64,000 bases of DNA, from NCBI GenBank assembly GCA_028716045.1, contig JAQUQO010000001.1:320942-384941 (forward strand). Direction: 5' to 3'. The translations under genes and the position numbers were made by a program. Below are positions 33,540 to 33,662 of the stretch, in pieces. The stretch comes from Patescibacteria group bacterium. Its GTDB lineage: Bacteria; Patescibacteriota; Patescibacteriia; JAQUQO01. The notes below the pieces were generated by a model. The model was given only the letters and a program-made list of their open reading frames with translations. It did no database searches and was not told where the DNA came from. Within the stretch, counting starts at the first letter, position 1; every line of letters begins with the position of its first letter.

Positions 33540-33662
33540 TGTCTTTGCGACCCCGCCTTGGCGGGGGAAGCAATCTCTAATACAAGACTCCTGCTCAAAG
33601 CTAAATATCAGGGATTGCTTCGTCGTCGTCCCAAAAACTTGGGACTCCTCCTCGCAATGACA
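33540..33662. repeat. GC-rich MITE/REP-like palindromic element, copy A (123 bp)
   Basis: Terminal inverted repeats TGTCTTTGCGA ... TCGCAATGACA. Internal hairpins CCCCGCC/GGCGGGG and GTCCCAA-aaac-TTGGGAC. The core GAAGCAATCTCT...CAGGGATTGCTTC is bounded by a 12-bp inverted repeat. A second copy lies at 45218-45368. Confidence 0.55.

Follow-up and report, generated by a model that had tools for sequence, protein, structure and literature searches.

Two palindromic elements and their surroundings

The 64,000-nt stretch of DNA analysed here, referred to as the window, belongs to the genome of a Patescibacteria group bacterium (assembly GCA_028716045.1, contig JAQUQO010000001.1) and holds two GC-rich palindromic elements, copy A and copy B, which an earlier sequence-only reading had pointed out as related repeats. 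That reading located copy A exactly (33540-33662) and copy B one base off, at 45218-45368 instead of 45219-45369. Both copies are confirmed to be intergenic. Copy A lies between the genes for GrpB and a GIY-YIG protein, beside the start of the latter as had been proposed, and ends 19 nt ahead of the start codon for a 97-aa GIY-YIG protein; a minus-strand promoter-like site is found near it (33727-33700). Copy B is indeed upstream of the glyA promoter, represented by a promoter-like site at 45385-45413, and has the intrinsic terminator of a 103-aa gene (45161-45209) on its other side. To judge by the sequence, the 5' leader of the GIY-YIG mRNA probably includes copy A, the only copy for which transcription is probable. 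The GC-richness attributed to the elements was also found, with 51% in copy A and 58% in copy B against 32-36% in the flanks and 40% in the window. The elements account for the GC-rich islands of the window and may explain breaks in short-read contigs, with little consequence for the window otherwise.

Each copy is composed of two unlike hairpin units of the repetitive extragenic palindrome (REP) type, named X and Y, around a structured spacer (Table 1), and both copies belong to a very large family. This agrees with the modular repeat, similar to REPs or to bacterial interspersed mosaic elements (BIMEs), that had been suggested. The two copies differ in their arrangement, which is Y(+)-spacer-X(-) in copy A and X(+)-spacer-Y'(-) in copy B. 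The 11-nt terminal inverted repeats reported before, TGTCTTTGCGA and TCGCAATGACA, occur at exactly four places in the window, all of them within these copies. The core between the arms is shared in one orientation, as had been noticed: the repeat finder returns it as direct repeat D13 (33567-33628 vs 45260-45321, 81%), and 46 of the 55 core positions are identical when copies A and B are co-oriented, compared with 36 of 55 when one is reverse-complemented, most of the latter matches coming from the palindromic stem. The inverted repeat that bounds the core was thought to be of 12 bp and measures 16-17 nt, with one A.C mismatch in copy B and two non-Watson-Crick positions in copy A.

Table 1. 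Composition of the three copies (window positions, except for copy C)
Feature	Position	Strand	Description
Copy A	33540-33662	.	complete dimer of Y-type unit, spacer and X-type unit; each strand folds into a four-way junction
Copy A, Y-type unit	33540-33575	+	TGTC tag, TTTGC-GA, plain GC hairpin CCCCGCC-TT-GGCGGGG, GAA-GCAAT-C; matches the unit regular expression
Copy A, spacer (interior of the core)	33576-33612	+	ends TCTAATA/TATCAGG complementary, prolonging the stem; loop with CAAAGCTA
Copy A, X-type unit	33613-33662	-	TGTC-ATTGC-GA, GGAGGA, GTCCCAA-GTTT-TTGGGAC, GACGAC, GAA-GCAAT-C
Copy B	45219-45369	.	complete dimer, other isomer: X-type unit, spacer, Y-type unit
Copy B, X-type unit	45219-45268	+	TGTC-TTTGC-GA, GGAGGA, GTCCCGA-AAAC-TCGGGAC, GACGAC, GAA-GCAAT-C
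Copy B, spacer (interior of the core)	45269-45305	+	same orientation as the copy A spacer
Copy B, Y-type unit	45306-45369	-	TGTC-ATTGC-GA, 44-nt GC-rich hairpin with CCCC..GGGG feet, GAA-GCAAT-C
Copy C	L145 2139-2321, about 8 kb past the right end of the window		Y-type unit, spacer, X-type unit; both units with TGTCTTTGCGA ends

An exchange of the two arms around the core had been described, and it holds for one of them. The GGAGGA-GTCCC..GGGAC-GACGAC arm of the X-type unit lies on opposite sides in the two copies, in reverse-complemented form (inverted repeat I1, 33606-33670 vs 45211-45275, 65 nt, 82%), and a further, shorter inverted match joins 33555-33583 and 45298-45326. The CCCCGCC..GGCGGGG arm is only loosely common to both copies, being a 16-nt CCCCGCCTTGGCGGGG hairpin in copy A and a 44-nt hairpin with another interior in copy B, where only the CCCC/GGGG feet agree. 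The claim that the core is inverted relative to the arms was borne out: when the copies are laid with the X-type unit leftmost, the spacers align only if one is reverse-complemented (score 19 vs 3). The 4-nt loop of the X-type unit is likewise reverse-complemented between the copies (GTTT in copy A, AAAC in copy B, on the unit strand), and one pair of the X stem covaries, being A-T in copy A and G-C in copy B and in copy C, a third copy in the same genome. Either orientation is therefore found at each palindromic level, namely unit position, hairpin loop and spacer.

Folding and anatomy of the hairpin unit

The same four-way junction is the predicted fold for either strand of copy A and of copy B. 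Its z-scores, from -5.5 to -7.5 when modelled as RNA and from -4.2 to -6.8 when modelled as DNA, are far beyond chance. The four window units also fold singly, each into the hairpin described below: the Y-type and X-type units of copy A reach -17.5 kcal/mol (z -3.2) and -19.7 kcal/mol (z -4.4), respectively, and the Y-type unit of copy B reaches -29.6 kcal/mol. Relatives elsewhere show that what looked like a terminal inverted repeat and the outer stem of the core is in fact one unit on a single strand, with the formula Y-GTC-(A/T)TTGC-GA-[insert]-GAA-GCAAT-C, in which ATTGC is paired with GCAAT around an insert that forms a hairpin of its own. The unit is a module of 27-65 nt. It opens with a pyrimidine-rich leader and the unpaired YGTC tag; the 5-bp foot, (A/T)TTGC:GCAAT, is followed by an internal loop (GA/GAA) and by an apical hairpin that varies and may be flanked by GGA/GAC ladders of G.A mismatches, and a C-Y-C tail closes the module. 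In the X-type unit the insert is GGAGGA-GTCCCRA-loop-TYGGGAC-GACGAC, where G-C pairs alternate with tandem G.A/A.G mismatches and a 7-bp stem caps the ladder. In the Y-type unit, GCGA and GAAGC directly enclose a plain GC hairpin. As the X- and Y-type units face each other with their tags outward and the ends of the spacer are complementary, the whole element is a nested palindrome, able to form a cruciform in duplex DNA and a four-way junction in a single strand.

The features of the unit recur across the family. The GTC tag is present in 138 of 153 units (90%) that the scan pattern had not selected. It is preceded by a pyrimidine in 94% of cases (T 60%, C 34%) and by a G-poor leader of about 10 nt, and past GCAAT the tail begins with C, has T (61%) or C (35%) as its second base and C (64%) as its third. 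Inserts range from 5 to 64 nt, the commonest being GCGAAGC (7 nt), GGAGCGAAGCGAC (13 nt) and GGA-[GC hairpin]-GAC. The stem anchored in the inserts has a mean of 2.6 bp, compared with 0.4 bp after shuffling, and the insert mismatches comprise 239 of the G.A/A.G kind against 73 of the C.T/T.C kind, an imbalance which implies that each unit has a defined sense strand. The conserved boxes were also compared by eye with two known motifs, the K-turn and the hammerhead, and the consensus positions do not fit.

A third copy in the same genome

The sequence read from this organism covers about 106 kb of its 812-kb genome (about 13%), that is, the window and about 42 kb adjoining. Copy C lies in the adjoining part, of which 10 kb past either end of the window were read to find it, just after an intrinsic terminator. 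Its spacer, of about 100 nt, is unrelated to the core of copies A and B and has partly complementary ends. It follows from copy C that heterodimers of X- and Y-type units are the rule in this genome and that the spacers differ among copies.

A large family in bacteria, plasmids and phages

The search for further copies succeeded in the same genome, in other genomes, in metagenomes, in viral contigs and in plasmids. A narrow core pattern, scanned against one genome per species, revealed five more dimers, three in a metagenome-assembled genome (MAG) of Ca. Magasanikiibacteriota and two in a MAG labelled Gammaproteobacteria; in these as well, similar spacers are framed by differing combinations of arms. 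Four more dimers were recovered with this pattern from JGI metagenomes. A general unit pattern, GTCATTGCGAG-N(8-38)-CGAAGCAATC, matched at least 120 stretches in viral contigs, and a looser regular expression found 317 units within 1.19 Mb of fetched loci. By blastn with a consensus dimer, intergenic copies were detected on plasmids of Methylosinus, Methylocystis, Novosphingobium, Halomonas and Legionella, with at least 40 places carrying the repeat on a Novosphingobium megaplasmid, and single units were detected in Helicobacter canis prophages and gut phages.

Regarding their arrangement, neighbouring units have their tags outward in 52 pairs, are in tandem in 24 and have their tags inward in 12. 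The dimers comprise 38 heterodimers of a ladder and a plain unit, 19 of two plain units and a single one of two ladder units, and singlets make up about half of all units. Two viral contigs display unusual clusters. In one of them (L034, 2695-2830) a 33-nt minimal unit, TCATTGCGAGCCTGCGAAGCAATCTGGTCGTCG, is repeated head-to-tail in four copies, and as the period is a multiple of three this array may lie within a coding region. In the other (L027, 5900-6250) tandem partial units, with CCTCGCAATGACAGGAGGGGTGCA repeated, stand beside full dimers in one intergenic region, so that decayed and intact units are densely packed. Text matching of literal unit sequences and peptides against the literature returned only primer noise or nothing, and no matching sequence was found in the RepRanger paper or in the HUH phylogenomics paper.

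Relation to CGTC-tagged and other REPs

Two REP superfamilies, one tagged with CGTC and the other with GTAG, have been distinguished (Di Nocera, De Gregorio & Rocco 2013, BMC Genomics 14:522, PMC3733652). According to the text and Table 1 of that paper, the CGTC superfamily comprises the families CGTC-1 to CGTC-4 and takes in Neisseria dRS3 and Rickettsia RPE-4/RPE-6. Its members have an unpaired terminal CGTC (TGTC or CCTC being allowed), a stem of 8-9 bp that begins with A-T and T-A, a loop of 4-5 nt and a 3-nt unpaired tail, mostly CCA. They occur mostly as dimers, often as heterodimers, with spacers that have complementary ends or small stem-loops; they lie chiefly downstream of genes, with some in-frame intragenic copies, have no associated transposase, and are known from five phyla, mostly from Alphaproteobacteria (PMC3733652).

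Set against this description, the window family shows several shared traits. TGTC starts all four window units, and the foot ATTGC:GCAAT opens with an A-T pair, the variant TTTGC with a mismatch at the first position being present in two of the four. The units form dimers and heterodimers with one preferred inverted arrangement and structured spacers, copies mostly follow coding regions and are now and then intragenic and in frame, and no transposase domain occurs in the genes around copies A, B and C or in most of the window, nor any such protein cluster near the units of the viral loci. The tail agrees only in part, being CTC in the window, CTC, CCC or CCA family-wide and CCA(G) in alphaproteobacterial copies, compared with the mainly CCA published. 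A difference concerns the hosts, since the window family is also present in Patescibacteria, or Candidate Phyla Radiation (CPR) bacteria, and in many viral contigs. As its stem is interrupted and its apical hairpin variable, which sets it apart from the families in the text and Table 1 of the 2013 paper, the window family is best described as a variant of the CGTC/TGTC REP kind lying outside the four families described there. A further connection comes from the peptides VIAGLDPAIH and DARVKPAHD published for CGTC-3 (PMC3733652). These would back-translate to GTCATTGCCGGGCTTGACCCGGCAATCCA, with an outer GTCATTGC...GCAATCC that would be identical to that of the window family. In blastn searches the back-translated sequence has intergenic matches in Rhizobiales, Skermanella and Sulfurovum plasmids. 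The full sequences of two such alphaproteobacterial matches show dimers whose tags (TGTC/CGTC) point outward and whose leader is rich in pyrimidines, the layout of the window family.

The elements can also be compared with REPINs, the GTAG REP doublets mobilised by RAYT/TnpA-REP, and with the BIMEs of E. coli, which are built from Y and Z REPs. As in these, two unlike inverted hairpin units around a short spacer form a long hairpin or cruciform, singlets are probable decay products, and the copies are extragenic and multicopy. In contrast with REPINs and their RAYT transposases, the tag of the window family is YGTC (TGTC/CGTC) and not GTAG, and no RAYT (Y1/HUH) gene was found in the window or in the adjoining 42 kb. 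REPIN populations are, moreover, typically described as lineage-specific and vertically inherited, whereas the window signature crosses phyla and is found in phages.

Gain and loss of units

Twenty-four of the viral loci form one phage group, which makes orthologous sites comparable. In two of these phages (L007 4355-4391 and L099 3691-3727) a single unit separates the Shine-Dalgarno sequence of a gene from its ATG, and the same site is empty in five relatives. In the two carriers the Shine-Dalgarno sequence and the start codon are about 45 nt apart, unlike in the five related phages without the unit. At a second site an insert of about 40 nt is present in L099 and missing from L007, and at a third a 42-nt insert, a multiple of three, is present in L109 and missing from L036, L068 and L076. 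Site 4 of the group shows a replacement within a coding region.

No target-site duplication was found at copies A and B or at 50 other dimers, and none that is consistent at the filled and empty phage sites; the flanks of the dimers instead prolong the palindrome, with pyrimidines prevailing to its left and purines to its right. Presence and absence at orthologous sites, together with the lack of target-site duplications, imply that the units are mobile, or at any rate often gained and lost, and that the marks of DDE transposition are missing. As for an associated enzyme, no transposase or recombinase domain was detected in the genes around copies A, B and C or in those annotated across most of the window, and when 1,177 crude open reading frames (ORFs) from the viral loci were clustered, only phage structural and packaging genes recurred, with no transposase-like cluster.

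Alternative explanations

Of the other readings, the least improbable is that of a structured non-coding RNA made from one strand, with a four-way junction and possibly the function of a ribozyme or a protein-binding RNA. The very stable and significantly non-random folds speak for it, as do the covarying pair of the X stem, the better folding of the minus strand in both copies (because of G.U pairs) and the probable place of copy A in the 5' leader of the GIY-YIG mRNA. Nevertheless, no Rfam family is matched, with nothing at the gathering score of release 15 in the whole window and only noise at E<10 in both copies, and the two strands fold alike, as those of a DNA palindrome would. Copies B and C are each preceded by an intrinsic terminator and followed by the next promoter, and family-wide no bias is seen in how the units are oriented to the genes beside them, as judged by crude gene calls. 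Spacers and apical hairpins are unrelated among copies, units also occur singly, in tandem or within coding sequence, and the two non-Watson-Crick positions in the core stem of copy A favour opposite strands. On balance an RNA function of this sort is improbable.

A classical miniature inverted-repeat transposable element (MITE), that is, a deletion derivative of a DDE-type insertion sequence (IS) moved by an IS transposase through the 11-bp terminal inverted repeats, is slightly less probable still. Such an origin would suit the terminal inverted repeats, small size, intergenic location and multiple copies, and the elements had been called MITE-like. In the transposon sense this term is not supported, given that target-site duplications are lacking at copies A and B and at the 50 dimers and that no transposase was found in the annotated part of the window. 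No IS or transposase was found in the window and none clusters near the copies in 125 loci. In addition, what passed for a terminal inverted repeat belongs to a hairpin unit also found alone and in tandem, so that the ends of the dimer are not the functional unit.

There is very little to recommend an inverton, in which a site-specific recombinase flips the core between the 17-bp inverted repeats and copies A and B represent opposite states. Inverted repeats do enclose the core, which is turned round with respect to the X/Y arms from one copy to the other, and the Logan contigs break in or near the elements, which heterogeneity in the population could cause. Yet copies A and B are separate loci rather than two states of one. 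The small invertible segment that had been envisaged is not supported, as each locus shows a single orientation in the assembled contigs, no recombinase was found nearby and the 37-nt spacer is without a promoter-like site. A search for both core orientations in the assembled contigs of two sequencing runs, SRR22315506 and SRR22315508, found the reference orientation alone at both loci, in agreement with the reference MAG: contigs L135 and L136 read through the core of copy A, and contig L129 enters that of copy B well past the first orientation-specific base. Moreover, the genes annotated across most of the window include no recombinase or invertase domain, and in copy B, placed between a terminator and a promoter, a flip would control nothing. 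The loop of the X hairpin is flipped as well, in line with a passive flip-flop of any palindrome.

The short-read Logan contigs of both runs (end of L129, start of L131/L132, end of L135/L136) all stop inside the elements. In copy A they do so at the Y hairpin and in copy B inside the loop of the core, and the contigs flanking copy A overlap by only 24 nt. Candidate causes are the repeat occurring elsewhere in the genome, a drop in coverage at the GC hairpins, and heterogeneity.

Equally hard to credit is a link to the GIY-YIG gene, by which the palindrome would be a recognition or repair site of a homing-endonuclease gene: it rests on the 19 nt between copy A and the start codon, whereas copy B, copy C and the L001-L005 dimers have no GIY-YIG neighbour and tblastn with the protein found no relative in the 125 other repeat-bearing loci, the window itself being the only match, so that the adjacency looks incidental.

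Nature of the elements and origin of the isomers

Both elements are likely to be dimers of CGTC/TGTC-tagged REP-type units. Several observations weigh against this reading and what it entails. The window family does not share the published stem and loop (text and Table 1 of PMC3733652), since only the 5 bp of its foot are continuous, with GA/GAA and GGA/GAC purine-purine mismatch ladders beyond them, and the length of its apical hairpin ranges from 3 to more than 40 nt. The short consensus unit is no more stable than shuffled sequences (z about -0.8) under nearest-neighbour models, which undervalue GNA loops and sheared G.A pairs. The viral sample was chosen by the analysis's own unit pattern, the gene calls behind the orientation test are crude, and copies A, B and C were counted in about 106 kb of the 812-kb genome only. 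No mobilising enzyme was found, so that the transposition step is drawn by analogy. Finally, just two spacers of the A/B type were found, too few to resolve how the isomers originated.

For dimers of CGTC/TGTC-tagged units, spreading would occur as folded single-stranded DNA by means of a putative trans-acting enzyme that reads tag and hairpin, on the model of the HUH/Y1 RAYT transposases that act on GTAG REPs. A stronger version of this proposal, which we put forward as tentative and somewhat doubtful, is that the hairpin unit GTCATTGCGA...GAAGCAATC, whose hosts include CPR bacteria, Proteobacteria, plasmids and many phage genomes, is a currently active mobile element that crosses phyla and is inserted as folded single-stranded DNA by a putative enzyme reading the YGTC tag and the G.A ladder.

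The exchange of arms between copies A and B could have come about by recombination between copies or by a replication template switch between inverted-repeat arms, a flip-flop of the intervening part. In the inverted terminal repeats (ITRs) of parvoviruses such as adeno-associated virus (AAV) and in hairpin-loop inversions of plastid non-coding DNA, the part between inverted-repeat arms is found in both orientations without a dedicated invertase, and these cases arise through hairpin-primed replication or plastid recombination. The spacer and the 4-nt X loop are likewise found here in both orientations, the difference being that the process is deduced from two or three copies only. The comparison rests on the window pair and on L002/L004, as the spacers of other dimers are too unrelated. 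Relative to the G.A ladder, orientation differs at three nested levels, namely a single mismatch of the terminal stem, the X loop and the spacer. Independent passive flipping fits this better than one regulated inversion, bearing in mind that only three copies are concerned, and the A/B isomers would accordingly not constitute a regulated switch.

Copies B and C sit in the gap that follows an intrinsic terminator, which by its sequence signals would be untranscribed, and the copies in this genome are probably near-neutral passengers. By analogy with what has been proposed for other REPs, the elements could insulate or stabilise neighbouring transcripts.

Other features of the window

The final conserved stretch of the folD coding sequence (..PGGVGPVTVAMLLQNTLKIAN..; 47488-47547) recurs with 78% identity at 47591-47650, just beyond the stop codon of the gene (47584), and reads GGVGPMTVAMLLYNTLEIAKRVDNY* there in another frame. 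From the sequence, this repeat looks like what is left of an earlier C-terminus that a duplication or replacement at the 3' end has displaced. A giant ORF of 3,555 aa with FG-GAP/BNR-type repeats occupies 48196-58863 on the minus strand, and its repeats explain the direct-repeat families D1-D5 and D9-D11 (29-50 nt, at 52-58 kb). A short gap between MurB-like and Mur-ligase genes contains tandem heptamers at 40116-40155 (GAATTAG GAATTAG GAGTTAG GAGTTAG GAGTTAC AAGTTAT). On the minus strand, at 25229-28268, the gene for a type IV coupling protein that resembles TrwB/TraG and bears a treble-clef zinc finger adjoins that of a 470-aa protein without a Pfam match. A cluster of ribosomal-protein genes and rpoA is found at 15.7-19.2 kb, and no tRNA genes were found in the 64-kb window.

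Significance

The repeats are an ordinary kind of bacterial junk or mobile DNA, short, widespread and non-coding. The novelty is modest and lies in the unusual G.A-ladder hairpin and in the CPR and phage host range, the kind of repeat itself being already known. The G.A-ladder hairpin constitutes a compact and testable structural motif. Finding a 20-nt signature in a minimal-genome CPR bacterium, in proteobacterial plasmids and in phages with insertion polymorphism points to a wider host range for transposase-less CGTC-type REPs, and the clean filled and empty sites provide a lead on how CGTC-type REPs spread, a question unsolved since 2013. Should the unit indeed be an active mobile element, the small phage genomes, with their filled and empty sites, would offer a direct route to the mobiliser of CGTC-type REPs.

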